Assembly (NCBI GenBank): GCA_963850545.1
Contig: CAWKLP010000002.1
Location: 1,501,934-1,565,933, forward strand
Direction of reading: 5' to 3'
DNA: 64,000 nucleotides
Source of the DNA: an uncultured Actinomycetota bacterium
GTDB taxonomy: Bacteria; Actinomycetota; Actinomycetes; Actinomycetales; Cellulomonadaceae
A program made the translations under genes and the position numbers. Positions 22,134 through 48,198 of this stretch are shown one piece after another (position 1 is the stretch's first letter; each line of letters starts with the position of its first letter). The notes below the pieces were generated by a model. That model saw only the letters and a list, made by a program, of their open reading frames with translations, had not been told where the DNA came from and searched no databases.

Positions 22134-22206
22134 GGGGCCATGGCGCAATTGGTAGCGCACCTGCTTTGCAAGCAGGGGGTTGCGGGTTCGAGTCCCGCTG
22201 GCTCCA
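22134..22206 (+). tRNA. tRNA-Ala (TGC), integration target
   Basis: GGGGCCA acceptor, CCTGC-TTTGCAA-GCAGG anticodon arm, GGTTCGAGTCC. Confidence 0.97.
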
Positions 22207-22208
22207 CC
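22171..22208 (+). repeat. attL core (38 bp)
   Basis: AGCAGGGGGTTGCGGGTTCGAGTCCCGCTGGCTCCACC, identical to 49980-50017. Confidence 0.95.
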
Positions 22209-22212
22209 TGGT

Positions 22213-22244
22213 GAAGGCCGTTGACCTGCTGGTCAGCGGCCTTC
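22213..22244 (+). terminator. Element-supplied hairpin downstream of the restored tRNA
   Basis: GAAGGCCGTTGACC-TGCT-GGTCAGCGGCCTTC. Confidence 0.55.
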
Positions 22245-22288
22245 CGCGTTCCTCGCAAGGCATCGACGAAAGAGCGATGCGATGAGGA

Positions 22289-22310
22289 TGACACGGTTTG
22301 TGACACGGTT
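22289..22310 (+). repeat. Putative integrase arm-type sites (left), TGACACGGTT x2 at 12-bp period
   Basis: Copies at 22289 and 22301; same motif recurs near attR. Confidence 0.7.
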
Positions 22311-22383
22311 GCGGCGCCCATGGTTGCCCGTGGCCGACGGCGATTACGGGCGGGACTTGGTCGCCGCCGGATTCTTAATGGGT

Positions 22384-22659
22384 ATGAGCACGACGCCCGA
22401 CGAGCACCCTCGGCTGGACCGCACTCCGATGTGGACGCTGGACGAGTTGTGCGCGCTGGTGCGTACGACGCCGGCCACCGTGCACACGTGGCGCAAGCGC
22501 GGCACCGGTCCGCGTGCATACAAGGTCGGGCGCCACCTGCTGTTCGCAGAGTCGGACGTTGCCGCATGGCTGGCCACGTGCGCCGCCGCTGCAGAAACGG
22601 ACATCGACGGTGAGTGGTACGGCGACCGCGACTCTGCTGGCAACGGGTCGGGGTGGTGA
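22384..22659 (+). CDS. Excisionase / AlpA-like HTH protein
   Basis: WTLDELCALVRTTPATVHTWRKRGTGPRAYKVGRHLLFAESDVAAWL; immediately upstream of the integrase. Confidence 0.85.
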   Translation: MSTTPDEHPRLDRTPMWTLDELCALVRTTPATVHTWRKRGTGPRAYKVGRHLLFAESDVAAWLATCAAAAETDIDGEWYGDRDSAGNGSGW

Positions 22660-22662
22660 CCC

Positions 22663-23982
22663 GTGGGCAAGCAGAAGCTCCAGCCGGGCGAGCACGGTGA
22701 GATCTTCCTTCAGGAGACCGGCCCGAATAAGTGGCGCGCCCGCACGCGGCTATGTCTGTGGGACAACTCCGAGGTGTGGGTTTCCCGCAACGCGTCGACC
22801 GACGATGCCGCCAGGTTGAAGGTGCAGAAGGGTGTGGTCGAACGCCTCGCTGCGGCGCGCGGGTCGGACGACCTGAAGCCGACGTCGAAGCTCGGACTCG
22901 CGTGTCGGCAATGGATCGAGGAAATGCGAGAGCGTTCCTCGTGGCCGAAGCCGCCGATCCTTCCCCAGTCCATAGACGAATACGAGCGGGTCATCGGCAA
23001 CCACGTCATTCCGCGCCTGGGTCAGCGGCGATTGAACGAACTGACCCCTGCGCTGTGTCAGAAGTTCCTGGACACGCTTCTCAAGCAGGGCAAGGGCGGC
23101 AAGCACAACATGGTCACCACGACGCGGCAGGCCCGAAACGTGGTGAACCAGGTGCTCGACCGCGCCGTCGTGCACGACGCACTGCGGGACAACCCGATGC
23201 GTAAGACGATCGCGCCGTCGAAGGTGAAGCCCGAACCGAAGGCGATCACCGCTCTGGAAATCGGTCGCCTTCGAATGATCGTGCGCGGCTGGGAGGCGTC
23301 GAGGGAAGGCAAGTTGGGGCCGAAGCCGACCGGGCACCTACGCGTAGCGGTCGACGTGATGCTTGGAGCTGGTCTACGGATCGGGGAGGTCATGGCACTG
23401 CGTTGGGGAGAGGTGAATCTCTCCCCCGACGGGCTGCCCACGCTCGCCGTGGAAGCCACCATGACCGACATCAAGGGTCAGGGGGTCGTGCGGCAGGAGC
23501 AGCCGAAGACCCCTGCCGGGGTGCGAACGATCATTCTCCCGCCATTCGCAGTCGATGCGTTGAACTCGATCCGGCCCGCCGTGACGTCCGCCGACATGCC
23601 GGTCTTCCAGGGCCGGCTGTTCAAGGACGGCCGCAACGCCGGGCGGCCCGTGTCGACGCACAACCTCCGCCGAATGCTGCGCACCGCCTTGGAGCTCGCG
23701 GACATGAAGGGAGCAGTGCACCCGCACCTGTTGCGCTCGACAGTGGCGACCCAAGTTGCCCGCAAGATGCGAGCATCGGACGCAGCAGCGCTCCTCGGTC
23801 ACGCGATCGACGCAGGAATCACCGGCAGGCACTACATCAAGCGCCTCCGGCTGGCTCCAGACACCTCGGCGGTACTGCAAGCCATGGTCGAGGCCGGCGA
23901 CGAGGAAGCGGCACGCGAAGCAGCCGAGAACTACGAGGCGGCGGCGGACGCAACTACCAGAGTGGTGGCTGCTCTTCGTTGA
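22663..23982 (+). CDS. Tyrosine recombinase / integrase
   Basis: GLRIGEVMALRW (R), PKT (K), HLLR (HxxR), LLGH and RHY (catalytic Tyr). Confidence 0.93.
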   Translation: MGKQKLQPGEHGEIFLQETGPNKWRARTRLCLWDNSEVWVSRNASTDDAARLKVQKGVVERLAAARGSDDLKPTSKLGLACRQWIEEMRERSSWPKPPILPQSIDEYERVIGNHVIPRLGQRRLNELTPALCQKFLDTLLKQGKGGKHNMVTTTRQARNVVNQVLDRAVVHDALRDNPMRKTIAPSKVKPEPKAITALEIGRLRMIVRGWEASREGKLGPKPTGHLRVAVDVMLGAGLRIGEVMALRWGEVNLSPDGLPTLAVEATMTDIKGQGVVRQEQPKTPAGVRTIILPPFAVDALNSIRPAVTSADMPVFQGRLFKDGRNAGRPVSTHNLRRMLRTALELADMKGAVHPHLLRSTVATQVARKMRASDAAALLGHAIDAGITGRHYIKRLRLAPDTSAVLQAMVEAGDEEAAREAAENYEAAADATTRVVAALR

Positions 23983-25066
23983 CGGCGTGACCCTGCGCTC
24001 CGGCTGGCTTCTTGCGCCGGAGCGCAGGGTGCCGCTTGTGGTGCGCGGTGTGAACCCCGGTGCACAGGTGGTCGAGGCGTTCGGTCGCGTGGTGCAGACG
24101 CGCGAGGTCGCCGCTGTTCGCGCGTGCGGAGAGAGCGTCGACGTCGGCGCGGTCGATCCACTCGTCCAGGTCGGCGACTACCTCGGCGAGTGGTCGTGCC
24201 GCATCTGGCGTCGTGGATCGATCACGGTCGTCGGGTGCGGGTGTCTTGGAGCGTGGCTTGCGTGGTCGGGCGAGCGCGGCCTTCGCGACGGCGGCCAGAT
24301 CAGCGGGATCGTCCTGCGCGTCGTCTGCTGAGGGAGCGGCGCTGGTGGCGTCGCGTTCAGTAATTGCCGCTCGAATCTGCTTCCACTGCTTCTCCGGGGA
24401 GGCGCCGTTGGTGGTGATGTCGTGCCAGGCGGTCTCGGCCATGGCGCGGATGTGGGCCGGCATGTCGGGGTCGTCGCGGGTGTCCTTGATCCGTCCGGTG
24501 TGTTCGAGGCGGGTGTAGGACTTGGCACCGGTGACCATCTGAGCGGCCTTGGCGCGTGCATCACCGTGCCGGGCAGGCAGGGTGTTCTGGCCCGGTCCCG
24601 CCGATTCGGCGGGACCGTTGTTGTCCCCTTTGCCCTCCCCCTTCGGGTCACCAAGGTTTTGGTCCTGGGCGGTGTGGAAGCGGGTGGCGTTCTGTCGGAG
24701 GGCGGCCTGTTCGGACTCGATGGTCTTGTACTCGCGGTACAGCTCTTCGGCGGCCTGAAGCGGCAGGGGCTCGCGGATCGTGTTCTCGTCGTGCTCGGCG
24801 ATTACGTCGCGCAGTCCGGCTGTGGCTCGGCGAACGAACACCGGCACGGTCTTCCAGGCGAGCAGCTTGACGGCTTCCAAGCGTCGCCACCCGCACAGCA
24901 GCAGGCCATCAGGGGTGACGGTCAGGGGGCAGAGCAGCCCGTTACGCGCGATCGAGTCGCAGAGCGCCGACAAGTCTCCGACCTCGCGCCGGTGCCGTGG
25001 CCCGACGGTGATGGAGTCGATCGCACGGTCCATCCGCAGCCCGTCGCTGAGGTCGTCATGCGGCAT
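23954..25066 (-). CDS. ParB/Srx N-terminal domain protein
   Basis: SIARNGLLCPLTVTPDGLLLCGWRRLEA; followed by a putative HTH and a low-complexity tail. Confidence 0.8.
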   Translation of the reverse strand: MPHDDLSDGLRMDRAIDSITVGPRHRREVGDLSALCDSIARNGLLCPLTVTPDGLLLCGWRRLEAVKLLAWKTVPVFVRRATAGLRDVIAEHDENTIREPLPLQAAEELYREYKTIESEQAALRQNATRFHTAQDQNLGDPKGEGKGDNNGPAESAGPGQNTLPARHGDARAKAAQMVTGAKSYTRLEHTGRIKDTRDDPDMPAHIRAMAETAWHDITTNGASPEKQWKQIRAAITERDATSAAPSADDAQDDPADLAAVAKAALARPRKPRSKTPAPDDRDRSTTPDAARPLAEVVADLDEWIDRADVDALSARANSGDLARLHHATERLDHLCTGVHTAHHKRHPALRRKKPAGAQGHAVNEEQPPLW

Positions 25067-26039
25067 GTCCGGCCTCCCGCTGGTCGAGGTGGCGTGGCGG
25101 GGTCAGGTCGTGCGCGTCCTGCGTGATCACCTGGTGCGCGGTGTCGCCGGCAAGGAGGCGGTGCAGCAGGCCGTCCCGGGTCCGGGTGCCCAGTACGGCC
25201 GAGACGAGGCGGGTCCAGGTGCGCCGGTCGACGTCCAGCGCTGCCACCGGTTGGCGGTCCTTGCGCAGCCGCTCGCGCGCGGCAGCGACGCCACCGGCCA
25301 CGGTCAGGGTCGTGGTGATGTGCTCGAGCCCGAGCCGGGCCACGTCGTTCGGCCACCCGACCGCGACGAGGACCGCGACCGTCGCCCGGGTCGCGGCCCG
25401 GACCTGACCCACGACCAGGGCTGTGGCCGGGTCTAGATCGTCGGCCGCCGCGGAGTCATGACGCGTGGTGGCCAGGGCCAGTTCGAGCCAGGGCGCCGGT
25501 TCGGCACCCGGAGTCGGCGTCGGGGCGGAAGGGTCACCGATACGCCAGGCCGGTGGCAGGTCGGTGCGAGCCATCACACGACGGGCACGATCCCGGGAGC
25601 ACAGCAGTTCGTCGGCACGGGCCTCGGCCCGCAGAGTGCGGGTCACCGCCGTGGTCACCACCGCCCACGGGTTCTCCGCACGCCGAACAGCCCGGTTGCG
25701 GAGCGCTTCAAAGGCCGCGACAGCCGCATCGTGCGAGGAGAGGTGATGCTTGCGCGCCAGATTCCGGTAGCGATCGGCGCAATGCAGCAACAGCTCTGCG
25801 GCCTCCGGGACGGTTGCCCAGGGCCGATCCCCTGCCTGGGCAAGGCGATTGAGCAGCGCCCGGAGTCCTTCTGGAGTGGCGAACGACGGACGAGCCTCGG
25901 TGAGCTCTGGGCCCTTCCGACCAGCGGGAGCAGGTACGGCGGGGTCGTCGGGGCGCGGTAGAACCTTGGCGGGTCCCGGTTCGGGGTGACGGTCCGGCCC
26001 TGCCGTCCGGACTGCGCCCGTCGTGTCGTCGCTCATCAT
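25056..26039 (-). CDS. Conserved hypothetical protein of actinobacterial integrative elements
   Basis: FATPEGLRALL...AAVAAFEAL...NPWAVVTTAV...DELLC; stop overlaps the ParB-like start. Family recognised from memory only. Confidence 0.6.
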   Translation of the reverse strand: MMSDDTTGAVRTAGPDRHPEPGPAKVLPRPDDPAVPAPAGRKGPELTEARPSFATPEGLRALLNRLAQAGDRPWATVPEAAELLLHCADRYRNLARKHHLSSHDAAVAAFEALRNRAVRRAENPWAVVTTAVTRTLRAEARADELLCSRDRARRVMARTDLPPAWRIGDPSAPTPTPGAEPAPWLELALATTRHDSAAADDLDPATALVVGQVRAATRATVAVLVAVGWPNDVARLGLEHITTTLTVAGGVAAARERLRKDRQPVAALDVDRRTWTRLVSAVLGTRTRDGLLHRLLAGDTAHQVITQDAHDLTPPRHLDQREAGHAA

Positions 26040-26106
26040 CAGTCGCCAGCCGCAGCACACGTCGCGAGCCACGGCATGTGCACCACGGTACGTCTCAGAA
26101 CACTAA

Positions 26107-26123
26107 TGTGCAATACCTGCACA
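26107..26123. promoter_or_regulatory. Candidate operator between divergent genes
   Basis: TGTGCA-ATACC-TGCACA inverted repeat in an AT-richer intergenic segment. Confidence 0.45.
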
Positions 26124-26167
26124 ACTGACTTCCGACTGTTGTGATCGCACACTCTGGGGATAGCCTG

Positions 26168-27199
26168 ATGCGCATGGGACATCCGAGCGTGCCTGAGCGC
26201 CCCGACCTGGGCGCCCGCCCCGACCATGCTGGCGAGGCGTGGTCGAGTTCCTGGACTGCGGGGATCGGCGAGCGGCTTCGGTCCGCACGCCTGAACGCAG
26301 GGCTCTCGACGCAGCAGGTCGCCGACCGGACCACCGCGCTCGGCTACCCCATGGCACGCGCGAGCATCGCGAACCTGGAAACCAGGCCCCGGGAGAAGAT
26401 CTACCTCCAGGACGTCACCGTGCTCGCTGCCGCGCTCAGGGTCTCCCCGGTAGAGATCCTGTACCCGTTGGAGGTCAACACCGTCCCCGCCGCCACGCCC
26501 ACACCCGTCGGTGTGATCCGGCGTGGCGTGCTGAAGAACACCAGCACGCAGGTCCTTCCCGGCCGAACCGAACGAGCCCCAGCCGCCGCAGCCTGGTTCA
26601 CCGGCGGATACGGACGAGTCCTCGAAGCACGCCTCGCGGCCATCACCGCCTACGGCAAGTACGAAGCCCGCTTCCAACTCCTAGCGATGCTCCACGAGGA
26701 AGAGAAGGCCGGCACGCTGGCCGCCCGAGCGGAGTCAGTCGGAGCGCCCACGCCTGCCGAGTTCATGAACGTGCTGTGGATGGAGGTCTACGACCTCGCG
26801 CGCTGGGCTTTGGATGCAATCACCACCTACGAACAGCTCGCAGCCAAGGTCGCCGACAGCAGGCCCGCCGTCGGCGACGAGCAACGCTCGCTCGCCGAGC
26901 GTGGAGCCGCGACGCCTCCGCCCGGATACATCGAAGACCCGTACGACCGGCCTGACGTGCGCGGAGTGCTGACCATCGGCGCGCCCGAACCGGGAGCGAC
27001 ACCGTTCTACCTCCAGGACGACCCCGAAGACCGCTGGACCCCACCCGACCTCACCCGGCCGGCCACAGCGTTCGAGACTGCCTCGCAGGACCCGCCGCGT
27101 CGGGCAGGGCCCAAGCGGCAGTACGCCGAGCCCGCCGCGACGCCCGCCGGTCCGACGCGACGGCGAGAAGACCGAGGCATCGACGCGCCTGGACTGTAA
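26168..27199 (+). CDS. Xre-family HTH regulator (element repressor-like)
   Basis: RLRSARLNAGLSTQQVADRT...RASIANLE...LAAALRVSPVEIL. Confidence 0.75.
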   Translation: MRMGHPSVPERPDLGARPDHAGEAWSSSWTAGIGERLRSARLNAGLSTQQVADRTTALGYPMARASIANLETRPREKIYLQDVTVLAAALRVSPVEILYPLEVNTVPAATPTPVGVIRRGVLKNTSTQVLPGRTERAPAAAAWFTGGYGRVLEARLAAITAYGKYEARFQLLAMLHEEEKAGTLAARAESVGAPTPAEFMNVLWMEVYDLARWALDAITTYEQLAAKVADSRPAVGDEQRSLAERGAATPPPGYIEDPYDRPDVRGVLTIGAPEPGATPFYLQDDPEDRWTPPDLTRPATAFETASQDPPRRAGPKRQYAEPAATPAGPTRRREDRGIDAPGL

Positions 27200-27374
27200 T
27201 GCGCTGCATCGAGTGTGAGTGCGTAGCTCCGGCCATGAAACCCAAAGGGTGGTCTGCGTGACGTTGCAAGTGGACCGATCACGGTGCCGCTACGACGCGC
27301 CAAATCGCGCCCGAACCCGCATGGACGTGCGGGTTCGGGGGCCGGATCGGTGCCGGGCAGGCGCCCGCTCTGCG

Positions 27375-28052
27375 CTAGATAGAACGCGCCCATTCCTTCA
27401 CCTGGGCACGCAGTTCCATCCGGACCTCGCTGCGCACCTGGGCATCGGAAAGACGATCGCGCCGAGTCTCGCCGCGCGGCCCCTCGCTCAGCCATGCCTC
27501 GACCGTTTCGCGAGCAGTCGCTGCGGGCATGCCAGCCTCAACGAGGTCGCTGACTGCGTCACCGAACAGGTCCGCCTCGTCAAACGGCCCGGAAATCATC
27601 TCGTTGATCAAGTCGGTGGGCACGACCACTCTCGTGAGGTGGTTGGCCCATCGCTGCACGAGGAGGTTTACCCCTCGTTGCGAGAGAATCGCAACCCGCT
27701 CCGCATTCTCAGCTTCGCTGGCATCCAGCAGCTCGATCTCCTCGAACTCGATAACCCGATCGTCCTGCCCATCGAACTTTGGCAGGAACATGCGGCGCTG
27801 ATGCAGCCTCCAATCCGAAGGCACGCCCGACGTCCATTCGTGCACCGTTGCGGCCATGAGTCGTGGGGCAAGCACCGGCCCCCGACGCATCGAGCAAGGA
27901 TGCTGAACCAGCGCGACTGTACGTTCTGCTCCGAAGACGAGGACGTCACCAGTGAACAACGGGCGTTCACGCAGTTCTGCGATATCAACCCCTCGTGCCT
28001 GGTAGAGCCTCGCTGGATCCCCGGGGTTCTCCAGATCATGCTCAGCGGACAA
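27375..28052 (-). CDS. Hypothetical protein, third gene of the TIGR04255-like operon (possible toxin/effector)
   Basis: LFTGDVL...QHPCSMRRG...FLP...LSQRGVNLLVQRW...RVVVP; TTG start 3 nt after the reconstructed upstream stop. Confidence 0.6.
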   Translation of the reverse strand: MSAEHDLENPGDPARLYQARGVDIAELRERPLFTGDVLVFGAERTVALVQHPCSMRRGPVLAPRLMAATVHEWTSGVPSDWRLHQRRMFLPKFDGQDDRVIEFEEIELLDASEAENAERVAILSQRGVNLLVQRWANHLTRVVVPTDLINEMISGPFDEADLFGDAVSDLVEAGMPAATARETVEAWLSEGPRGETRRDRLSDAQVRSEVRMELRAQVKEWARSI

Positions 28053-28066
28053 CAGTCACGCCCTTA

Positions 28067-29058
28067 GAGATCGCGCGGGTAGGGCGTCGAGGTCGCTGGG
28101 GTGGAGTGTCGCGGGTTAGGGGCGTCGGGCGGGTCGTTGGTTCCAGCGGTGGGTCTTCCATGCCTCGCGGATCAGTCGTCGGGTGACGATGATCGCGTTG
28201 ATCAGGGCGAGGAATGCCTCGATCACGACGGTGCGGCGTTCGGTGCAGATCACGACGATGTTGAAGCCGCGGCTGTTCCAGGAGTTGGTACGTTCTACGA
28301 CCCACCGTCGGGTGTGGTTGATCGGGACGACCTCGCCCTTGGGCTGGATATGACCATCGAACCCGAGCTCGTCGAGCAGCTCGCGGGTGACGTTGCTGTC
28401 GTAGCCGGCGTCCAGGTGCAGGCGCATCTGGTCGGGCAGGTCGAACCCGAACCGGGACAGCTTCTCCAGGGTGGGGCGCAGCAGCGGGGAGTCGTGCCGG
28501 TTCGCTCCGGCGATCACGCAGCCGAGCTGGATACCCCGCTTCTCGGTCAGGCGCGACCACTTGATGCCCAGCTTTCTGCGGTCGACCGGGGACTTCCCGG
28601 CGGCCTGGCCGCCTGCCGGGGCCTTGGTGATCTGCCCGTCGACGCTCACGTCACCGAGCTCGAGCCCGACGATCTTGTCGTAGGCGTCCAGCACGATCTG
28701 CTCCAGCCGCTGGAACACTCCCGCGGCGATCCACTCGTCACGACGGGTCCGGATCGTGGTCGCCGAGCACGTGGCATCGGCGTGCTTCTTGTAGGAGCCG
28801 CTGAAGACCAGCTTTGCCACGATTTTGTCGAACACCACCCTGTCCGGGATGCGCGGGTTGTGACATCCCAACGGGTGATCGTCGTGATGCGCGGGCAGGA
28901 GGGCGGCGAACTGGACCCACAAGGGGTCGATCGCCCATGCTTCAACAGCAGGCACCGGGGACTCCGTGTTCAGATGTAGATCTAGGCAATCCACATCAAA
29001 CCGGACACCCGGTGCCTGCGTCACATCACCCGACCCGCACACCTACCCGCGCGATCTC
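28067..29058. mobile_element. IS5-family insertion sequence (992 bp)
   Basis: Perfect 17-bp terminal inverted repeats GAGATCGCGCGGGTAGG; TTA target duplication at 28064-28066 and 29059-29061. Confidence 0.93.
28116..28955 (-). CDS. IS5-family DDE transposase
   Basis: HPLGCHNPRIPDR, VDGQITKAP, HLDAGYD, RWVVERTNSW. Confidence 0.9.
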   Translation of the reverse strand: MPAVEAWAIDPLWVQFAALLPAHHDDHPLGCHNPRIPDRVVFDKIVAKLVFSGSYKKHADATCSATTIRTRRDEWIAAGVFQRLEQIVLDAYDKIVGLELGDVSVDGQITKAPAGGQAAGKSPVDRRKLGIKWSRLTEKRGIQLGCVIAGANRHDSPLLRPTLEKLSRFGFDLPDQMRLHLDAGYDSNVTRELLDELGFDGHIQPKGEVVPINHTRRWVVERTNSWNSRGFNIVVICTERRTVVIEAFLALINAIIVTRRLIREAWKTHRWNQRPARRP

Positions 29059-29698
29059 TTAGTCGGATCGACGGCACACCATCAGCCGCGGTGAAGACCT
29101 CGAACCGGTCTTCTACGCGCGTCGTGTGCCAACTGGGGTCGAACTCGTCGAGGACATCGTTCGCGGTCTCGACGGGCGAGTGTTCATCGTTCGCAAGTTC
29201 GAGCACCAGGTCGTAGCGGCCCGCTATGAGCAGGTCAAGCGCACTGACCGACACGCCCTGGCGGATCGGGACTTCAAGCCACGACACCGGCTCGCTGATC
29301 ATGTTGTCGCGCAGGTACGCCAGTAATGCGACGATGCCGGCAAGCTTGAGGCGGTTCGCACCAGTGATCCCTTCACCACGGCGCCACTTCTGTACCGCTG
29401 CGACGCTCACTCCCACCATGCGCGCAACGTCGCGCCATGCCATGCCCTGCTCGCCGAGCTGGTCCAGTAGGTACTGACCATCATGGTTGGCCTCGGCACG
29501 CTGACGGTCTTCCCAGTGATGCTGAAGCGTCGCCCTTCTCAGGCCCGCAGCCTGTGGACCGAGGTTGCGGACTGAGCGGTGAAGTTCGGCAGCATCGGCC
29601 AGGACCGAAGCGCTCTGCGTCCGCGTGATACGGACGCCCGAGAACGGAGCAACGGCACCAGTCTGAACGTCGCCGATGAGGTCGGTGTCACTCTGCAT
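29021..29698 (-). CDS. Xre HTH protein with MbcA/ParS-like C-terminal domain (antitoxin-like); C-terminus altered by the IS
   Basis: GMAWRDVARMVGVSVAAVQKWRRG HTH; SWLEVPI...SALDLLIAGRYDLVL; last residues are read from the IS end. Confidence 0.65.
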   Translation of the reverse strand: MQSDTDLIGDVQTGAVAPFSGVRITRTQSASVLADAAELHRSVRNLGPQAAGLRRATLQHHWEDRQRAEANHDGQYLLDQLGEQGMAWRDVARMVGVSVAAVQKWRRGEGITGANRLKLAGIVALLAYLRDNMISEPVSWLEVPIRQGVSVSALDLLIAGRYDLVLELANDEHSPVETANDVLDEFDPSWHTTRVEDRFEVFTAADGVPSIRLRDRAGRCAGRVM

Positions 29699-30500
29699 CG
29701 AGCACCTCCGTACGTAGTCGGTCAGTTAGCGAAGCCTCAAACAACTGCTTGACGAAGCGATGCATCACATCGGCCTTGCCAAGCACCTCGCTTGGGTCGA
29801 GGGCTGGGATCTCCTCCCCCGGCCCAGGTGTCCAGCCTGCGTCACTATCGATCAGGAAGAACGGTCCAACTGGATGAGCGTCTGGCCGCGCCAACACTGT
29901 GGCCCCAACCGAGGTGGCGGCAACCACAGCCCCATAACGGAGCGTGACTAGGACGTTCGGCACATCCGTTGCGTACTGGATCGTCGCTTGTTGCTGCTGT
30001 ACACGTAGATTCTGCCCGGATTCATCCAAGATCGGGGGCGCTAGCTTCGAGTTCACCCACGTGGACCAGTCGGGGGTTTGGTCCGGCACGCGCACCTCGT
30101 CGATGTAACGCAGTCCGATCCGCTCGACGCCGTCGACCGGAGCGATGTCCATGCGCGCGGACAGCACGGTATGGGCAAGCTGGAGCAGATCTCCCCAGGT
30201 GTCGTACTTGGTGGTCTCAATCGTGATCGAGTTCGGGTTGAAGGTGACTCCGAGACGCTTATCGCGGGTCGTGAAGCGCACGACGGGCTCTGAGCGCACC
30301 TGAGAGCCGCTTGACTGTGTACCCGAGACGGCGAACTCAACACTGTTGATGACGCCCCTCTCGGACAGCGGGAGCACCTTCAAGAGCGCCGCCTTGAGCC
30401 CAGCCTCTTCGCCACGGCTCAGGGACGGTGCAGCAGGATGCGTGACCTGGAGGATGACGAGCTCCAGCGGCGCGTTTCGGTACTTCGTAGACTCCGGCAC
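29688..30500 (-). CDS. TIGR04255-family protein (function unknown)
   Basis: N-terminal YRNAPLELVILQV, central ERIGLRYIDEV, late FFLIDSD; stop overlaps the next start by 11 nt. Confidence 0.7.
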   Translation of the reverse strand: MPESTKYRNAPLELVILQVTHPAAPSLSRGEEAGLKAALLKVLPLSERGVINSVEFAVSGTQSSGSQVRSEPVVRFTTRDKRLGVTFNPNSITIETTKYDTWGDLLQLAHTVLSARMDIAPVDGVERIGLRYIDEVRVPDQTPDWSTWVNSKLAPPILDESGQNLRVQQQQATIQYATDVPNVLVTLRYGAVVAATSVGATVLARPDAHPVGPFFLIDSDAGWTPGPGEEIPALDPSEVLGKADVMHRFVKQLFEASLTDRLRTEVLDAE

Positions 30501-30815
30501 ACAAGCCACGATACCGAAACGACAACCGAAGTAAACACTTGGGGGGGAGTAAGTTCGCGAAGGTGCCGAAGCCCACGTGAGCCCTGGCCGCGCCACACTT
30601 CAGGGCCGGACGGCTCGCCAGCAACCAGAAGCGGATGCGGGCACATTCGGCTAGATGCGTCCGGATCGAGATTCACCAGGAGGGCGGCTTGCCCAGAGCG
30701 GGGGCGACGGCCGCCATCGTTCGGCTACGTCCGGACGCAACCGGCTGGGTTGGGACAGTTGGTGGGGCCAGTGGACGAGAGGCCCGTGAACGGCGCGCGG
30801 CTTCGTGCGAGATGC

Positions 30816-31721
30816 TCATCCGACCTGCGCCCCATTGTCGGACACGGCGTCAGGGACAAGTCGCATGTAGAAAGTGCTCAGCTCAGTCTTGAGGACCATG
30901 CTCGACAGCCCGTCCCGGCGGGCCTCTTCTCGAACCTCCTCGATCCGGCGCCTGCGGGCTTCCCAGTCCTTGCGTGGCCAAAGTGCCGGTGTCGCCTGTC
31001 CGAAGGCGAGTCTCCCGCTGGGGTACTCGCGCACAACCTTCTCGGTTGCCTCCACGTTGGTCGCGAGCAGGCTGTGCAGAGCCGCTTCCATGCGGAACAG
31101 GTCGATGGACTCGCGACCGAACACGAGCAGACCCGGGAATGGTGCAAAGTGCCGGACGCCCTCGTGCCTGGCCGTGACGCCCCTGCTCTTGGCCTCGTCC
31201 TCCGAGAGCGACACGAAGTAGAGCTCCTCCGAGATGTACCAGTCACTGAGCGACCAGATATCGCCAGCAGTGACGAGAGAGTCGATGCGTTCGTCGATGT
31301 GCTCGTAGCTGTTCCTCACGTCCGCGACGCCAAGCAGCGGTGAATCGGCTTTGATCTCAAGCAGCTCTCTAAGCCGCTCGCCACGGAGGAGGGCTTGACG
31401 CGCTAGCACCGCCTTGCGCTCGTCAGCCTTTCGATGCTTCTGAGGCTTGGGATCGAGGAACCGGTTCAGGATGATCGCTGCAGTCACGAAGCCCTGAAGT
31501 TCGGCCCACACAGTTAGATCCCTGGCTTCTCGCAGCTTCCGCCAAACAGTGAGGTCAGCCGGCGAACCTTCGAGGGCCCACAGTCGATCAAGGTGATATA
31601 GCGCGATGCGCGCCTGGTGCACACAGCACGAGAGGTAGTAGTCCCAAGCGTGGGTCTCGTCCCCTCGCCGGATTGAAGTCATCGGTGCATACCGCCCGTC
31701 ATGGGGCGTTGGGCTGTCCAT
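30816..31721 (-). CDS. Putative HEPN-like (RxxxxH) protein, possible RNase/Abi
   Basis: Helical protein with VRNSYEHIDERI; atypical codon usage. Confidence 0.5.
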   Translation of the reverse strand: MDSPTPHDGRYAPMTSIRRGDETHAWDYYLSCCVHQARIALYHLDRLWALEGSPADLTVWRKLREARDLTVWAELQGFVTAAIILNRFLDPKPQKHRKADERKAVLARQALLRGERLRELLEIKADSPLLGVADVRNSYEHIDERIDSLVTAGDIWSLSDWYISEELYFVSLSEDEAKSRGVTARHEGVRHFAPFPGLLVFGRESIDLFRMEAALHSLLATNVEATEKVVREYPSGRLAFGQATPALWPRKDWEARRRRIEEVREEARRDGLSSMVLKTELSTFYMRLVPDAVSDNGAQVG

Positions 31722-31929
31722 ACCTCAGCGAATCACCGTGGCAGTTTCGACGCTGAGGCGCCACGCGCTACCAGACTGCGGTTCACCCGCATGCGCCGTA
31801 GCCGCCCTTAGCAGTCCTGCCCTCCTCGCCACCGAGGCTCCCTGCGCGGTCACCACGAGGGGACCTGCGCCCTCAAGCCCGTCAGGAACCCGGTGGCACC
31901 CGACGCGGCTGGTGTGACACGGTGTCGCC

Positions 31930-33507
31930 GTGACCTCGGGCAGCGTGATCGATGCGTACACCAGCGAGCAGGTGCAGACGGCCGTAGCAGGCGCCTTGGC
32001 GGTTGCGCGCAGTGAGGACGAGCTGATCCGGAGGGCTTCGTTCGGCCTGGCGCAGGTGTGTCTGACAGAGCTGCGGGACAGATTCGGATCGGCGCATGGA
32101 CGTACCGCCATTCTCTTTGTCGGCACGGGCAAGAACGGCGCGGACGCGATGGTCGCGGGCAAGCATCTGCGTGAGCGTGGCGTCGCGGTGCACGCGGTCG
32201 CGACCAGCGGCCACGTGGATGCGATCGGGACGCGTCATCTCGACGTCCCGGTCATCGACGCGACCGATGCAGCGGGGCTCAAGCAGGCTCTCGATCTACT
32301 CGCGGGCGCGGACATGGTGGTCGACGGAATCGTCGGCGACGCGATGGTCGGAAGCCTGCGCGCTCCTGCGTGCACCCTCGTGGAGACGATTCCGGACACC
32401 GCTCTGGTCGTCGCTGTGGATCTGCCCAGCGGTGTGGACCCAGATTCGGGCGCGATCAGTGGCGTGCACGTGCGGGCGGATGTCACGGTCACGTTCGCGG
32501 CATACAAGCGGTGCCTGCTGCTGCCTCCGGCAGCCCAGGCCGCGGGACGCTTGGTGTTCGTCGACGTCGGGATCTCGCCGCGCCTCGACCCTGCGGGCGA
32601 GGTCCAGCGACTGACTCCGTCGGGTGTCGCTGAGCGTTGGCCAGTGCCGGGACCTGGTGATCACAAGTATTCGCGTGGCCTGCTCGGCATCGTCGCAGGG
32701 TCGGACCGGTACCCGGGCGCAGCGGTACTGGCGTGCCTGGGCGCCTTCGGGACGGGCGTGGGCATCGTCCGGTATACAGGTCCGCGCCATGTGGGCGACC
32801 TGATTCTGCAGCACGTGCCAGAAGCTGAGAGGTTCCCCGGGAAGGTGGACGGCTACCTGCTGGGCTCAGGCGTGCTCGATGACCCAGATCAGGACCGCGC
32901 GATCGATGAAGCTCTGGCGACCGGTTTGCCATGCGTGGTCGACGCCGGGGCCATCGAGACGTGCGTGCGTCGACGAGCAGCGGGCGACCGGCCCACACCG
33001 GGAGATCGCATCTTGCTGACGCCACATGTCGGTGAGTTGGCTGGTTCCCTGGCCGCGTTCGGGTACGAGGCGACGACGACGGACATCCTCCAGCGGCCTT
33101 ATGAGCACGCGCTGCGGGTCGCGGAGGCGGCCGAGGTGACGGTGCTGTTGAAGGGCTCGACCACGATCGTCGTTGGGCCGGATGGTCGAGCATTCAGCCA
33201 GGACGAAGGGCCTGCTTGGCTAGCCACTGCCGGGTCAGGTGATGTGCTGGCTGGGATCGCCGGTGCGCTCACCTCGGCCGGCCTTACCGCGCTGGACATA
33301 GGTGCCATGGCTGCGTTCGTTCACGGCCGCGCGGCACGTATCGCGGCGGACGACGGCCCGCTGCGAGCCAGCCAGATCGCCGAGCACACGCCGACGGCGG
33401 TGCGGGAACTGCTGGCGGAACGAGAAGCGTCGGTCAGGCCGCGAGCAGGCCGCCGCGGCGGGCGAGGCCGTGCACGTGCGGGCGGGCGCGGGCGCGGTCC
33501 CGAATGA
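31930..33507 (+). CDS. nnr: Bifunctional NAD(P)HX epimerase/dehydratase homologue (YjeF/NnrDE)
   Basis: GTGKNGAD, VAVDLPSGV, HKYSRG, TPHVGEL, LLKG, LATAGSGDVLAG. Confidence 0.85.
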   Translation: MTSGSVIDAYTSEQVQTAVAGALAVARSEDELIRRASFGLAQVCLTELRDRFGSAHGRTAILFVGTGKNGADAMVAGKHLRERGVAVHAVATSGHVDAIGTRHLDVPVIDATDAAGLKQALDLLAGADMVVDGIVGDAMVGSLRAPACTLVETIPDTALVVAVDLPSGVDPDSGAISGVHVRADVTVTFAAYKRCLLLPPAAQAAGRLVFVDVGISPRLDPAGEVQRLTPSGVAERWPVPGPGDHKYSRGLLGIVAGSDRYPGAAVLACLGAFGTGVGIVRYTGPRHVGDLILQHVPEAERFPGKVDGYLLGSGVLDDPDQDRAIDEALATGLPCVVDAGAIETCVRRRAAGDRPTPGDRILLTPHVGELAGSLAAFGYEATTTDILQRPYEHALRVAEAAEVTVLLKGSTTIVVGPDGRAFSQDEGPAWLATAGSGDVLAGIAGALTSAGLTALDIGAMAAFVHGRAARIAADDGPLRASQIAEHTPTAVRELLAEREASVRPRAGRRGGRGRARAGGRGRGPE

Positions 33508-34666
33508 TCAGTTCGCGCAATAGCTCGCGAACGATCGTGGAGTCGTGAACCTCGTCGGAGGAGATCTGCTCGGCGTCCAGTAGGACCAGTGCGGCGGACT
33601 CGTCTTCGCCGCGTCGCACGAAACCCCGGGCCGTGGAGATCAGTGCGGCTGACCGGCGTTCCACGCTTGGGATGTTGTTCAGGTTGAGGCGGGCTGACAG
33701 CTCAACTACGTCGTCCGGGCGCCCGAGCTCGGCGTTGATCGCCACGGCGTGGATGTCGACGTTCCCGGCACCGAACTTCGTCCACGGGTCGTAGTAGCCA
33801 GGCCCGAGGGCGTTGGCTGCGTCCTGCGCGACGCGGTGCAACGCCCAGGCGCGGCCGTCCTGATCGGACTGCGCGGCGCTGACCGCCGCCGCCAGGTGCA
33901 GCATCCCGTACGCGCCCAGAAGGTCCTTGCGCGGATTCGCGGGGTCGATGCGGGTGTGCACCTCGTCGGCAGCGACCAGGCAAATTCGGGTGGCTTCGTC
34001 CTGATGACCTGCGCGCCGGTAAGGACCTGACAGTGCCCAGGCGGACAGCGCGATGAGGTAGGGGTCGTCGGCCTCGCGGGCAATGTGAGCAGCGCGGTCG
34101 GACACGACCCAGGCCAGGTCCCCGGACGGGACGTGGTGCAACCACTGGCGCGTGATCTGGTAGGCGCCCGCCAGCGTGCGAGCGCTGCGCGCCCGGTCCG
34201 ACGACGTGGCATGGGCGGCGTGCGCATCAGCGACGAGTGCGGGAAGAAGGGCACCGACGCCGCGGTGCGCCGAAGGCGACTCATGCCAGATCGTCCAGGC
34301 GTCATCGACGCGGCCCGCCACGTCGGTCAGGTCGGGTGCCGGATCGGTGACCGGGATCGGTCCTGCAGTGCGCATGATGACCTCGCGCAGCGCAGTCACG
34401 GTCTCAGCCTGGGACGGACCGGTGCCAGGGGTCAGCGCATCCAGAGGCCGGCCGATCAAGTCGTCGACGGTGCAGCCGATGACTGACGCGATCCGGACCA
34501 GGTCCGTGAGCCGCTCGGCGTGCCGGCGGCCCTGCTCCACTGCGGAGACCCACTGGACGGACTTGCCGATGCGCTCGGCGAGCGCAAGCTGCGTCACGCT
34601 GGCCGCGCGACGGTGAGCGGCGATTGCCGCTCCCACACCACGTAATAGGTCCGCGTCGTTTGTCAT
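33434..34666 (-). CDS. Xre-family regulator with large helical C-terminal domain
   Basis: IAAHRRAASVTQLALAERIGKSVQWVSAVEQG HTH, followed by ~330 aa of Ala-rich helices. Confidence 0.8.
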   Translation of the reverse strand: MTNDADLLRGVGAAIAAHRRAASVTQLALAERIGKSVQWVSAVEQGRRHAERLTDLVRIASVIGCTVDDLIGRPLDALTPGTGPSQAETVTALREVIMRTAGPIPVTDPAPDLTDVAGRVDDAWTIWHESPSAHRGVGALLPALVADAHAAHATSSDRARSARTLAGAYQITRQWLHHVPSGDLAWVVSDRAAHIAREADDPYLIALSAWALSGPYRRAGHQDEATRICLVAADEVHTRIDPANPRKDLLGAYGMLHLAAAVSAAQSDQDGRAWALHRVAQDAANALGPGYYDPWTKFGAGNVDIHAVAINAELGRPDDVVELSARLNLNNIPSVERRSAALISTARGFVRRGEDESAALVLLDAEQISSDEVHDSTIVRELLRELIIRDRARARPHVHGLARRGGLLAA

Positions 34667-34711
34667 GGCCACCACGATAGGCGGCCTGCGGGGTAACCAA
34701 CAGGCTCAGAA

Positions 34712-34729
34712 CTGCTACGCGTGTAGCAG
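34712..34729. promoter_or_regulatory. Candidate operator in the divergent promoter of the tailoring cluster
   Basis: CTGCTAC-GCGT-GTAGCAG inverted repeat. Confidence 0.5.
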
Positions 34730-34847
34730 CCCTCGCGGGTCTCTCGCTCATAGCGTCGTTTTCGTCGGTGGGCTGCGTCCCAGCAGCGGCCCGCCGACTG
34801 CCAGAGCACCAACCATGCCGAGCACGACGTAGTGACACGAGGGGGAC

Positions 34848-35192
34848 GTGATGGGACTTCGAGGCCACGACTTGGACCTGGTCAAGCACGATCACCCGAC
34901 GCCGGTCGCCGAGCGGCCGCCGGTCGATGATCTGACGCGCGCGCTGGGCGACGCGTTGACGGCGATACGCGCCCTCGGTCCCAACCGGATCGAGCTGGTC
35001 ACCGTGACCAAGGATCGGATCTCTCTGCAGCCCACGGACCTGGAAGACGGCCAGCAGATCGCCCACGCTCTGGGCTGCGATCTTCCACTGGATCACCGGA
35101 TGTTCGTGCCCGGGCACACACTCTGGACCGGGACCCGCTACGGACTGGAGATTCAGGTCCGGTCGGTCTTGCGTCAGGTGGTGGCCCGATGA
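34848..35192 (+). CDS. Hypothetical protein, first gene of the cluster
   Basis: GAGGGG RBS; ATGA overlap with the HAD gene. Confidence 0.6.
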   Translation: MMGLRGHDLDLVKHDHPTPVAERPPVDDLTRALGDALTAIRALGPNRIELVTVTKDRISLQPTDLEDGQQIAHALGCDLPLDHRMFVPGHTLWTGTRYGLEIQVRSVLRQVVAR

Positions 35193-36313
35193 ACGCCGCA
35201 ACCGTCACCTGCATACGGACCCTCGTGGCGCTCGACATCGACGGGACCCTCGTGGACGGCAAGAGCAAGATCCCGCCCGGGACGGTTGAGGCGCTGGACC
35301 TGGCCCGCGCGGCAGGACACGAGGTCGTACCCGCCTCCGGGCGGTCGCTCGCCGGATTGCTGCCAATCGCGGTCCGGTTGGGGCTTACCGACGGATGGGC
35401 AGTGGCCTCCAACGGCGCCCTGACCGTACGCCTGGATCGGTCCGCGCCGTCGGGGTACGACGTCGTTGACGCCCGGACGTTCACTCCAGGGCCGGTGATC
35501 AGCCGCGCCGTGGACCTGGTCCCGGGTGTCCGGGTCGCGGTGGAGGAAGTCGGGTGGGGGTGGCGCACGAACCACCCCTTCGCCCCGGGAGAGCTCAACG
35601 GGCAGCAGAAGCCAGCGACGCTGGACTACCTGACGTCCGAGCCAGCAACCCGGGTCGTGCTCGCTGCACCAGGCATCGGGCGGTTCGTCGATGCGCTGGG
35701 TGCTGCCGGGGTCACGGTCACCCCGGCGGGGCCGAACTGGTGCGATGTGACAGCGCTCGACGTCGACAAGGCGGTCGCGCTCGATGGGGTGCGTAAGCAC
35801 CTGCACATCCCCGCTGAACGCACGGTGGCGGTCGGCGACGGCATGAACGATCTGACGATGCTGGCCTGGGCCGGGCGCTCGATAGCTATGGGGCACGCAC
35901 CCGCGATCGTGCGCAGCGCGGCCGTCGAAACGACCGGCACGATCGACGAAGCCGGGGCGCTGCCCGTTCTGGCCTCGCTCGTCCCGGACATCGACGGTTC
36001 ACTGTCATCGCTGGCCGCCCAGATTGCGGTCGGGGCGCGCACCGCGCCGGGCCCGGCCGTTTTGCGGGTGTGGCACGGCACCGGGCCGGACCTGTCCCGG
36101 TGCGAGATTTGGACCCTCCAGACTTCGCACTGGGTCCGGCACGCACCTGTCCCGTCCGGCGTCGGCACCACCATGCGCGCAATCGAAGCCGCCGCGCTGG
36201 AGGCGGGCCTGCCGTTCCCACGCGGGGACGAGGGCCGCCGCCGCGCTCAATGGCGCAGTGTCACCACCCGCAGTGGTCCGGCCGGGTTCGAACTCCCGCT
36301 CAACAGTTTCTGA
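35189..36313 (+). CDS. Cof-type HAD hydrolase (phosphatase) with C-terminal extension
   Basis: ALDIDGTL (motif I), ASGRS, DKAVAL, AVGDGMNDLTML. Confidence 0.88.
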   Translation: MNAATVTCIRTLVALDIDGTLVDGKSKIPPGTVEALDLARAAGHEVVPASGRSLAGLLPIAVRLGLTDGWAVASNGALTVRLDRSAPSGYDVVDARTFTPGPVISRAVDLVPGVRVAVEEVGWGWRTNHPFAPGELNGQQKPATLDYLTSEPATRVVLAAPGIGRFVDALGAAGVTVTPAGPNWCDVTALDVDKAVALDGVRKHLHIPAERTVAVGDGMNDLTMLAWAGRSIAMGHAPAIVRSAAVETTGTIDEAGALPVLASLVPDIDGSLSSLAAQIAVGARTAPGPAVLRVWHGTGPDLSRCEIWTLQTSHWVRHAPVPSGVGTTMRAIEAAALEAGLPFPRGDEGRRRAQWRSVTTRSGPAGFELPLNSF

Positions 36314-36486
36314 CGCCGAAGACTTGCAGCCGCCCCGCATCGATCTCCGGCTGCATGCCCGCCTCCAGACGGCGGGAAGGCCGAGGTCCCCACCCCCGGG
36401 AACCTCGGCTGCCCCCACGAGCGCCTAGAACGAACAGGGGCCAGCCAGCCCTGGCAGCTCCACGAGGTTCCGACCGGAGGCGAACG

Positions 36487-41177: not shown

Positions 41178-41255
41178 CCACAGACAGATCCAGCTATGCC
41201 GTCCTGGCCGCCCCTACGCTGACCAGGACGGCTAACCCGAGAAGCAGAGGAACCG

Positions 41256-42301: not shown

Positions 42302-42452
42302 TTCAGCCTCACGGACAAGCAGCGCGCGGCTGGCGCCTGGCGCTGACCCCGCGACGGTGATCCCAGAAGGCGCGGGAGGCCGGCACGCGGAGGCGACGGG
42401 CGGGGGACCCACCTCCGCGGCTCATCCCAGACCCAGACCCTCTCCAGACCAG

Positions 42453-42553
42453 TCCCACCACAACCCCCACATCACACCCAACCCCCACATCCCACCCCCA
42501 ATCCCTCACCCTCTACCACATCCCCCTAAATCACCCCCCAATTCCTCCCCCCA
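42453..42553. other. 101-nt tract with no G on the + strand (G-run-rich - strand)
   Basis: No G between 42452 and 42554; upstream of the relaxase. Confidence 0.85.
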
Positions 42554-48195: not shown

Positions 48196-48198
48196 GCC

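Follow-up and report, generated by a model that had tools for sequence, protein, structure and literature searches.

The three co-oriented genes at 27375-30509 of the window (the whole 64,000-nt stretch of DNA analysed) are, on balance, probably one copy of a mobile and apparently undescribed tripartite cassette of the toxin-antitoxin or defence type, in which gene 3 would be toxic, gene 2 would neutralise it, the products would form a complex and the whole would serve in defence. An earlier note, made from the sequence alone, had proposed a candidate module of this kind, and its in silico parts (conservation of the triad, the fold of gene 3 and the affinities of the gene 2 core) held to differing degrees. 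The features concerned are as follows.

22171..50017, no strand: tRNA-Ala integrative island bearing the triad, ~27.8 kb (direct repeat, tRNA-Ala, integrase)
22171-22208 and 49980-50017: direct repeat of the island, 38 nt (alignment of the two ends)
22663-23982: tyrosine integrase of the island (Phage_integrase Pfam match)
27375..28052, minus strand: gene 3, probable toxin/effector, 225 aa, TTG start (AF2 and Foldseek)
28064-28066 (gene 3-proximal) and 29059-29061, no strand: target-site duplication TTA (read off the sequence)
28067..29058, minus strand: IS5-family insertion sequence, 992 bp (NF033580 transposase, inverted repeats, TTA duplication)
29021..29698, minus strand: gene 2 in its present form, HTH antitoxin-like, 225 aa (HTH_3/HTH_23, hhalign)
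29688..30509, minus strand: gene 1, TIGR04255-family protein, 273 aa, GTG start (NCBIfam match)

The triad has the layout of a type II toxin-antitoxin locus: its genes are adjacent, co-oriented and translationally coupled, and gene 2 encodes an HTH. The gene 1 reading frame spans 29688-30596, and its likely start, the GTG at 30509, gives 273 aa, the same length as the product on record (P0229). The span of 27375-30500 given by the earlier note therefore stands except for its upper coordinate, which is ~30509, the sole correction to that note's statements about the sequence. As it had described, the stop region of gene 1 (29688) and the ATG of gene 2 (29698) overlap by 11 nt, and joining the flanks of the insertion yields an IS-free gene 2 of 215 aa that ends in ...SIRLRA*, with gene 3 beginning 3 nt later (TGA, ctg, then the gene 3 TTG). 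Overlaps of 8-17 nt between genes 1 and 2 recur at homologous loci, gene spacing within the triad ranges from -17 to +9 nt across all loci, and the N-terminus of gene 3 lines up with those of its homologues in the alignment. The three products are coupled through the overlap of start and stop codons.

The neighbourhoods of loci with an intact gene 3 bear out the proposed conservation: all three genes are present at every such locus, closely coupled and in an unchanged order, and their identities to the window copy fall in the same rank order for genes 1, 2 and 3. Gene 3 is found in 4 of 401 Actinomycetota genomes and in 2 of 30 species of the genus, and the same-genus copy shares neither DNA similarity nor flanks with the window copy. 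The GC content of the triad is 62-63.5%, versus 68% for the window, and the exact 25-nt 3' end of the tRNA-Ala recurs at 49993-50017, where the island ends (0 chance matches expected). Elsewhere the triad lies between hsdS and hsdR in a type I restriction-modification operon (L071), next to a TIR gene (L068), in a patch rich in toxin-antitoxin genes (L069), in a prophage (L070) and beside a MobF relaxase on plasmid pNAPH. The triad is a conserved, horizontally mobile unit. Lesions cluster on gene 3: besides the IS in the window there is an apparent frameshift in G202, which could be an assembly error (670 contigs), and in pRaL13e IS1380/ISL3 insertions have taken the place of genes 1 and 2 and of the 5' portion of gene 3, half its length.

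The AF2 model of gene 3 (pLDDT 93.4) consists of a MazF/PemK/CcdB-like barrel with a closing helix (~aa 1-140), followed by a helical extension of ~85 residues (~aa 146-223). In a Foldseek search of the PDB, the best 50 matches were all MazF/PemK/CcdB-fold toxins (E 2e-4, prob ~1.0), with target-normalised TM scores mostly of 0.55-0.76 over ~115 columns; the top matches in BFVD were 'PemK-like' proteins, some of them 220-233 aa long. What had been offered as a weak guess of a PemK/MazF-like fold is thus borne out by a confident model. At the sequence level gene 3 has no Pfam, NCBIfam, PADLOC or PHROG family match, none of 24 family members matches Pfam at E <= 1, including PF02452 (PemK_toxin) and PF01845 (CcdB), and hhalign against one genuine PemK gives 0.1%; we counted this lack of a sequence-level link to MazF against the main reading. 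A RES domain was sought in Pfam and not found, in agreement with the missing RES motif reported earlier. The family comprises 381 clusters at 50% identity, 0 of them annotated, with lengths of ~199-252 aa (most 221-237), not the 100-120 aa of a single-domain MazF. Automatic annotation under-calls it in at least two records.

The pattern TGDV...QHPCS...FLP...QR, previously picked out by eye, coincides with conserved columns of the family alignment, in which G35, D36, H51, P52, C53, Q133 and R134 are invariant and L90 and P91 nearly so. In published MazF structures a catalytic Arg is conserved in the beta1-beta2 loop, together with a Thr/Ser. In our gene 3 alignment (A1) no Arg is invariant in this short loop; the position preceding beta2 is variable (R, N, D, C), with R30 and R56 invariant nearby, and the chemistry of gene 3 may therefore differ from that of MazF. 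Rather than being a MazF-like endoribonuclease, gene 3 might poison a protein target such as gyrase, as CcdB does, or have a wholly new activity that uses the Cys. The CcdB structures 2vub and 1vub are among the fold matches (target-normalised TM 0.73-0.74), and the lack of an invariant Arg in the loop, the H-P-C-x-x-R motif and the extra helical domain, the last two without a counterpart in MazF, point the same way. However, MazF/PemK E-values are about two orders of magnitude better than those of CcdB, and nothing points to a particular target, so we consider this alternative unlikely. Under the preferred reading gene 3 would be the effector, a MazF/PemK/CcdB-fold domain with an invariant G-D ... 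H-P-C-x-x-R signature and a helical C-terminal extension, and would most likely arrest growth by acting on RNA in the manner of MazF.

Directly upstream of this putative toxin, gene 2 matches HTH_3 (E 1.2e-4, aa 83-118), and an HTH_23 match occurs in all 28 members of its family. None of the 28 matches Pfam PF20432 or PF09722 at E <= 1, a failure that we also counted against the main reading; PF09722 has no match anywhere in the genome, and the genome's second cassette reaches PF20432 only at E 6e-4, below the cut-off. Although Pfam misses it, the MbcA/ParS-like C-terminal segment claimed for gene 2 is supported by hhalign: the family aligns with six genuine PF09722 (Xre/MbcA/ParS) proteins at 82.9% (E 9e-6, aa 85-164), and its sister class aligns with PF09722-bearing antitoxins at 95.9%. 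The aligned core (aa 85-164) comprises the HTH and the W..P...DLL segment, flanked by ~80 extra residues at the N-terminus and ~50 at the C-terminus. Judged from these profiles, the core appears to be remotely related to Xre/MbcA/ParS antitoxins, and gene 2 would be the cognate antitoxin and probable autorepressor of gene 3, a role in part shown by the above. Public records describe gene 2 simply as a transcriptional regulator.

For gene 1, the suggested likeness to TIGR04255 is confirmed by a match to the NCBIfam model at 142.7 bits (cut-off 30; E 1.7e-41) over model positions 1-250 of 252. Its AF2 model (pLDDT 93.6) shows a duplicated beta-alpha-beta fold, for which Foldseek found no confident structural match in the PDB. 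The fold matches listed (AdoMetDC/prozyme, TBP and Bet v1-like) are all weak; SecB is absent among them, and we rejected a SecB-like chaperone as a candidate. Across 27 TIGR04255 proteins with differing partners, R130, R134, D221, D223 and F257 are conserved in 27/27 and Y102 and Y135 in 26/27, while in the triad subfamily E98, D137, E138, R140 and Q174 are also invariant. From their pattern, the few residues conserved across the whole set (two Arg, two Asp, two Tyr and one Phe) fit an enzyme or a ligand sensor just as well as a chaperone. No accessible paper names TIGR04255.

Could gene 1, instead of being a passive sensor or chaperone, be an enzyme whose substrate for chemical modification is the toxin (perhaps its invariant Cys) or the antitoxin, as in a type VII-like system, with gene 2 mainly an adaptor and repressor? 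The invariant set across the 27 proteins is compact and mostly polar or charged, the subfamily adds its five further positions, and the best fold matches, though weak, belong to an enzyme family (AdoMetDC/prozyme, E 2.8e-4); moreover, one Cys, along with the Q of Q-G-D, is invariant in the wider third-gene alignment described below. Yet the AdoMetDC match is poor (TM 0.29, rmsd ~18 A), so that no catalytic site can be transferred from it, the charged invariants would also suit a ligand- or peptide-binding site, and gene 1 has no identified cofactor-binding motif. We therefore regard an enzymatic mechanism of this type as improbable. In the scheme that we favour, gene 1 would be the conserved third partner, encoded first in such cassettes whichever pair lies downstream, and would probably act as a sensor or regulator that gates the antitoxin-toxin complex by way of its universally conserved R-x-G-x-R-Y / D-x-D site.

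The pairing of TIGR04255 with other genes bears on this scheme. Of 20 further TIGR04255 loci, 9 have a third gene with a 'GD...SQxCD' motif that hhalign relates to gene 3 (95.8%), and at 7 of those 9 the middle gene is related to gene 2 (hhalign 96.8%); in the wider third-gene alignment, one Cys and the Q of a Q-G-D motif are the only invariant residues. Other TIGR04255 loci have unrelated downstream pairs, including small ones at L056 and L057, where the last gene of L056 has a weak HicA match (E 0.045). Some close TIGR04255 homologues (L045, L046, L053) are solitary, without partners, which we counted against the main reading, as we did the lack of a PADLOC model match: against PADLOC-DB 2.0 the three triad proteins gave only chance-level matches (E 0.023 or weaker). 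A broader proposal, possible but doubtful in our estimation, would place TIGR04255 proteins at the centre of an extensive, unrecognised group of tripartite toxin-antitoxin or abortive-infection modules, in which the universally conserved R-x-G-x-R-Y ... D-x-D site senses a shared signal, or catalyses a shared modification, that releases many unrelated antitoxin-toxin pairs, and gene 3 is a new family of MazF-fold toxins with the invariant Cys as a possible control point.

The same observations can be set against a reading without any toxin, in which the triad would be a regulatory module made up of a transcription factor (gene 2) and two accessory proteins that bind nucleic acid or ligands, and its mobile contexts would be coincidental. 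The public annotation of gene 2, the empty PADLOC search and the fact that gene 3 is still intact here although the IS has broken its coupling to gene 2 are all in keeping with such a module. But nearly all known proteins of the MazF/CcdB fold are toxins, placements in a restriction-modification operon, beside a relaxase and in a prophage are typical of toxin-antitoxin and defence genes, several different downstream cassettes are paired with TIGR04255, and independent lesions strike gene 3; a non-toxic module is thus very unlikely.

It is instructive to compare the cassette, read as a toxin-antitoxin triad, with known systems. In TAC systems, such as M. tuberculosis HigB1-HigA1-SecB(TA) and CmdTAC, a toxin-antitoxin pair is joined by a SecB-like chaperone (PMC9098466, PMC11618068). 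Both arrangements are three-gene operons in which the pair comes with a third protein of its own, both draw on a single third-component family for several unrelated pairs, and in both the antitoxin (here putatively gene 2) has segments beyond the toxin-neutralising core. They differ in that the third component here is a TIGR04255 protein with a duplicated alpha/beta fold of ~270 aa, not SecB-like, that it is encoded first rather than last, and that its invariant polar site points to catalysis or the binding of a ligand. With MazEF, PemIK and CcdAB the triad shares the predicted barrel and closing helix in the first ~140 residues of gene 3, and a translationally coupled, antitoxin-like DNA-binding gene directly upstream. 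In contrast to those systems, gene 3 falls outside PF02452/PF01845, is double the usual length, carries an extra helical domain and has G-D, H-P-C-x-x-R and Q-R as its invariants, while gene 2 is of Xre type rather than MazE/AbrB or PemI, and a third gene is present. The gene 2 core resembles the antitoxins of Xre-RES, MbcTA and ParST through its alignment with PF09722 proteins, whereas gene 3 has a MazF-like fold in place of a RES domain, and gene 2 differs by failing both Pfam models and by its extra terminal segments.

Two further systems are closer in single respects. Class 8 hicBA (Gerdes 2024, mBio, PMC10865869) has a three-domain 'HicB' of 342-356 aa next to an extended HicA, in which an N-terminal domain (1-171) and a middle domain of unknown function precede the HicB fold; TIGR04255 is not named in that paper, and the pair is HicAB as opposed to the Xre/MazF-like pair here. 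Type II Gabija GajC (NAR 2026, PMC13069673) is a MazF-like effector with helical additions in a validated anti-phage system. Compared by description, gene 3 shares the MazF-like domain and helical additions of GajC, whose partner is the GajB helicase and whose MazF domain is split by an insertion. If our reading holds, TIGR04255 ('sporadically distributed, unknown function') would become a common upstream component of modular toxin-antitoxin/defence cassettes, a second example, of different mechanism, alongside the TAC systems that depend on SecB, and the MazF/CcdB fold would be widened to take in toxins of two domains whose conserved signature is different. Its presence inside a restriction-modification operon, within a prophage, in the transfer region of a plasmid and on a tRNA island would also recommend the cassette for tests of plasmid stability and phage defence.

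The copy in the window has been altered by the insertion sequence, which is identified as an IS5-family element by its DDE transposase, the inverted repeats at its ends and the 3-bp duplication of its target. Its inverted repeats are perfect over 17 bp (GAGATCGCGCGGGTAGG, at 28067-28083 and 29042-29058), and its transposase (ORF 28116-29042, same orientation as the operon) scores 129 bits against NF033580 (cut-off 110) and contains DUF4096 and DDE_Tnp_1 domains. The insertion point is the last codon of gene 2, whose present product has native residues 1-214 (to 29057) followed by 11 IS-encoded residues and a stop. All three reading frames and the ribosome-binding site of gene 3 remain intact. 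Since gene 3 now lies ~1 kb from gene 2, the IS5-family element on the last codon of gene 2 has probably uncoupled or lowered toxin expression, which would make the IS-split copy a natural uncoupled allele for comparison.

A stronger version of this, that the cassette is functionally disabled, with gene 3 expression blocked or strongly cut and genes 1 and 2 alone being made, is a serious possibility to which we give slightly less than even credence. The IS places 995 bp between gene 3 and both its translational coupling and the operon promoter, and a scan of 27000-32000, of a kind not valid for actinomycete promoters, found no sigma-70-like promoter; the element is undamaged and its target duplication perfect, which marks the insertion as recent. 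On the other hand, because the transposase is co-oriented with the operon, read-through into gene 3 is possible, the duplicated TAA preserves an AAGGG ribosome-binding site 8 nt ahead of the TTG, and gene 3 retains every family-invariant residue in the present genome. The genome holds no other identical copy of the element, but a different contig carries relatives of 83% and 76% identity.

The window has the high GC content (68%) of high-GC actinomycete DNA, and four consecutive open reading frames lie on its minus strand between 27375 and 30600. Three of them form the triad, and the other belongs to an insertion sequence (IS) that separates the second and third genes. The features of the locus are these:

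30816-31721, minus strand: gene for a 301-aa protein, directly upstream of the triad and co-oriented with it
29688-30596, minus strand: open reading frame of gene 1, a TIGR04255 protein (GTG start at 30509; P0229, 273 aa)
ATG start at 29698, minus strand: gene 2, an HTH antitoxin-like protein, sharing 11 nt with the end of gene 1
28067-29058: IS5-family element of 992 bp, whose 17-bp terminal inverted repeats match perfectly, flanked by a duplicated TTA target site
27375-28052, minus strand: gene 3, a probable toxin of MazF-like shape (225 aa, TTG start)

The 11-nt overlap had been described in an earlier note on this DNA, and the position of the gene 2 ATG at 29698 agrees with it. The IS, whose transposase is intact (NF033580, 129 bits, cut-off 110), is inserted in the last codon of gene 2. 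When we rejoined the flanks in silico, the IS-free gene 2 encoded 215 aa ending in ...SIRLRA, and three bases separated its TGA stop from the TTG at which gene 3 starts, exactly as that note had read the junction. Its account of the sequence holds throughout. The present gene 2 product consists of native residues 1-214 plus 11 residues encoded by the IS, and the ribosome-binding site of gene 3 (AAGGG, 8 nt ahead of the start) has been kept thanks to the duplicated TAA. Because none of the three triad frames is broken and the transposase reads in the same direction as the operon, gene 3 could still be expressed in this genome by read-through from the IS. A scan upstream of gene 1 for an operator palindrome, promoter and terminator returned nothing usable. 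The exact IS sequence has a single copy in the genome, that of the triad; diverged relatives with 83% and 76% identity lie on another contig (G000:C1:1217741-1218685 and G000:C1:180369-181319).

Gene 3 has no match in Pfam, NCBIfam, PADLOC or PHROGs, and tblastn against the phage collection found none. It does belong to a family, which counts 86 clusters in the 90% collection and, at 50% identity, 381. Almost every full-length member falls at ~215-250 aa, and a functional name is attached to none of them. Among the invariant columns are R30, P31, G35, D36, H51, P52, C53, R56 and W81, followed by R119, G127, Q133, R134, R141 and E159. Since G35, D36, H51, P52, C53, Q133 and R134 are among them, the TGDV...QHPCS...FLP...QR pattern remarked upon in the earlier note is a signature of the family.

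The AlphaFold2 model of gene 3 is confident (pLDDT 93.4, pTM 0.89), and the top 50 Foldseek matches in the PDB are only MazF, PemK/MoxT and CcdB structures (best E 2e-4, probability ~1.0, target-normalised TM mostly 0.55-0.76). These matches span ~115 columns, corresponding to the N-terminal half, while residues 146-223 form an additional helical domain that has no match. Viral predicted structures called "PemK-like", some of 220-233 aa, head the corresponding BFVD list. What had been offered as a weak guess at a PemK/MazF fold is thus borne out by the model and the Foldseek search. A RES toxin is rejected: the absence of a RES motif that had been reported holds, with no RES match and a MazF-like fold. 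Gene 3 shares its fold with MazF and CcdB, but sequence membership failed and the architecture is different. No sequence-level link to MazF was found by Pfam on family members or by hhalign, and no meaningful match came from PDB sequence-profile searches with the alignments of the three families. The catalytic Arg of MazF sits just before strand beta2; in the gene 3 alignment, the residue at this place is variable. We infer that gene 3 encodes an effector that arrests growth; its target is most likely RNA, as for MazF, with a chemistry that may differ. A 402-aa hit (P0187) was considered as a gene 2-gene 3 fusion and rejected, its N-terminus being low-complexity junk from an over-extended high-GC reading frame.

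Gene 2 has its HTH at residues 83-118, and HTH_23 is matched in 28 of 28 family members. The resemblance to MbcA/ParS antitoxins that had been proposed for its C-terminal segment does not extend to a Pfam match: neither PF09722 (the MbcA/ParS C-terminal domain) nor PF20432 (Xre-like HTH) is matched in any of the 28, and PF09722 has zero matches throughout the window genome. The resemblance does appear in profile-profile comparison with six genuine PF09722 antitoxins of other Actinomycetota, in which residues 85-164, containing the HTH and the W..P...DLL segment, scored 82.9% probability (E 9e-6). The middle genes of sister cassettes, which are led by TIGR04255 and have a third gene with a "GD...SQxCD" motif, reached 95.9% against the same antitoxins. 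Because of these two matches, gene 2 is, as judged from its sequence profile, remotely related to the Xre/MbcA/ParS antitoxins; a ~80-aa N-terminal and a ~50-aa C-terminal segment are added around the core. Its product would bind and neutralise that of gene 3 and repress the operon. Gene 2 resembles its counterparts in MbcA/ParS systems, but the partner toxin is not RES.

Gene 1 belongs to NCBIfam TIGR04255 (E 1.7e-41, 142.7 bits, cut-off 30) and to no Pfam family. Its confident model (pLDDT 93.6) consists of two similar beta-alpha-beta halves, for which the best PDB fold match, AdoMetDC/prozyme, is weak (E 2.8e-4, TM 0.29), followed by TBP and Bet v1-like proteins. A SecB-like chaperone was rejected because SecB is absent from the listed PDB fold matches. 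Residues R130, R134, D221, D223 and F257 are invariant in 27 of 27 TIGR04255 proteins from all cassette classes, in which Y102 and Y135 are conserved in 26 of the 27. A search of the accessible literature found no paper containing "TIGR04255", "CHP04255" or "IPR026349". Gene 1 would control the gene 2-gene 3 pair, perhaps as a sensor, regulator or enzyme.

We conclude that the locus is probably a tripartite toxin-antitoxin-type module, which adds a new family of predicted toxins with a MazF fold. The operon layout and its coupling, the folds, the distant homologies, the joint inheritance and the mobility are demonstrated by the analysis; the roles given to the three products are predictions. 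The SecB-dependent TAC systems are nearest to it in logic, but the third component of the triad, gene 1, does not resemble SecB and heads the operon. Gerdes (2024, PMC10865869) describes long "Class 8 HicB" proteins whose N-terminal domains are unexplained; these may be fused relatives.

Wherever an intact gene 3 was found, genes 1, 2 and 3 occur together in the same order with few-base overlaps or gaps, so that the neighbourhood comparison suggested earlier favours a conserved triad. The loci counted were six metagenome/genome loci, three further Actinomycetota genomes, one same-genus species, four more divergent branches and the Rhodococcus plasmid pNAPH. Identities to the window copy drop in the same rank order across loci for all three genes, indicating that the triad diverges as a unit. 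Gene 3 is sporadic: of 401 Actinomycetota genomes sampled, 4 contain it, as do 2 of 30 congeneric species; TIGR04255 is commoner (26 of the 401 genomes). The same-genus triad (G407) was rejected as an orthologous empty-site control, since it shares neither DNA similarity nor flanks with the window. Also rejected as parts of the system were the 301-aa gene, an HTH gene (26141-27199) and a 338-aa gene; each matches only itself, and because they are not linked to triads elsewhere, we regard them as mere neighbours. For the 301-aa gene, Pfam, NCBIfam and PHROGs gave no match, and its one PADLOC match is at chance level.

The foreign GC content of the triad (62-63.5%, compared with 68% for the window) is accompanied by a mobile setting:

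22171-50017, ~27.8 kb: integrative island at tRNA-Ala, containing the triad
22171-22208 and 49980-50017: 38-nt direct repeat of the tRNA-Ala 3' end, bounding the island
22663-23982: tyrosine integrase, within the island

An island boundary inside 22.1-32.1 kb was sought and not found there; the att repeat lies at 50.0 kb instead. Elsewhere, the triad occupies contexts typical of conflict systems. In a metagenome contig the complete triad (L071, 2424-4678) interrupts a type I restriction-modification operon, lying between its hsdS and hsdR genes; at other loci it adjoins a TIR-domain gene (L068), lies amid NYN, HicB and MNT-HEPN genes (L069), or belongs to a prophage, where it precedes an SPP1-type portal gene (L070). 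On pNAPH it is directly 3' of the MobF relaxase gene.

Lesions of the triad concentrate on gene 3, a pattern consistent with a costly third gene. They comprise the window IS, which makes this locus a natural IS-split allele of the triad; an apparent frameshift, possibly an assembly error, that splits gene 3 in one of the three further Actinomycetota genomes (G202); and the IS elements of the Rhodococcus aetherivorans plasmid pRaL13e (L085; NZ_CP130482.1 40625-48984). In pRaL13e, a plasmid related to pNAPH and with the same transfer genes beside the lesion, IS1380 and ISL3 stand where genes 1-2 and the first (5') half of gene 3 would be, and just the 3' part of gene 3 survives.

The triad belongs to a wider class, for which we compared 20 further TIGR04255 loci. 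In nine of these, TIGR04255 is tightly coupled to two downstream genes, a middle one and one for a third protein of 180-326 aa that has an N-terminal "GD...hhhh(S/T)Q.CD" motif. These third proteins are relatives of the MazF-like domain of gene 3 (hhalign 95.8%, E 6.8e-9), whose Cys and G-D align with theirs, and are blank in Pfam, NCBIfam, PADLOC and PHROGs. The middle gene encodes an HTH protein related to gene 2 in seven of the nine (96.8%); in the other two it encodes a small protein in which no HTH is recognised. One of the nine is a second cassette, of a different subclass from the triad, on another contig of the window's own genome (L058; G000:C1:2854000-2861400), composed of TIGR04255, an Xre-like HTH protein (PF20432 E 6e-4, below cut-off) and a 285-322-aa protein with a 'GDV...VVVSQTCD' motif, which is distant kin of gene 3.

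Other loci have unrelated pairs after TIGR04255. In three (L044, L050, L051) proteins of ~162 and 143-152 aa, neither matching Pfam, NCBIfam or PDB, may constitute another toxin-antitoxin pair of the class. One locus has 186 + 127 aa and two have ~142 + 72-87 aa, the last gene in one of these two showing a weak HicA match (E 0.045); NCBIfam and PDB sequence searches on further partner genes identified none of them. In four loci TIGR04255 has no tightly linked downstream partner. L045, L046 and L053 have a TIGR04255 gene closely homologous to that of the triad (the triad profile matches them at E 1e-59 to 1e-83) but neither gene 2 nor gene 3 downstream, and may be relics of cassettes that lost the pair. 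We infer that a conserved first gene, with a single fixed polar site, heads interchangeable downstream pairs.

Automatic gene calls make gene 3 too short: the record for the window genome has 138 aa starting at Met88 (P0001), compared with 225 aa for the intact frame, and RefSeq gives 150 aa (WP_193904039.1) on the two Rhodococcus plasmids, compared with 221 aa for the intact frame (L084, 4001-4666).
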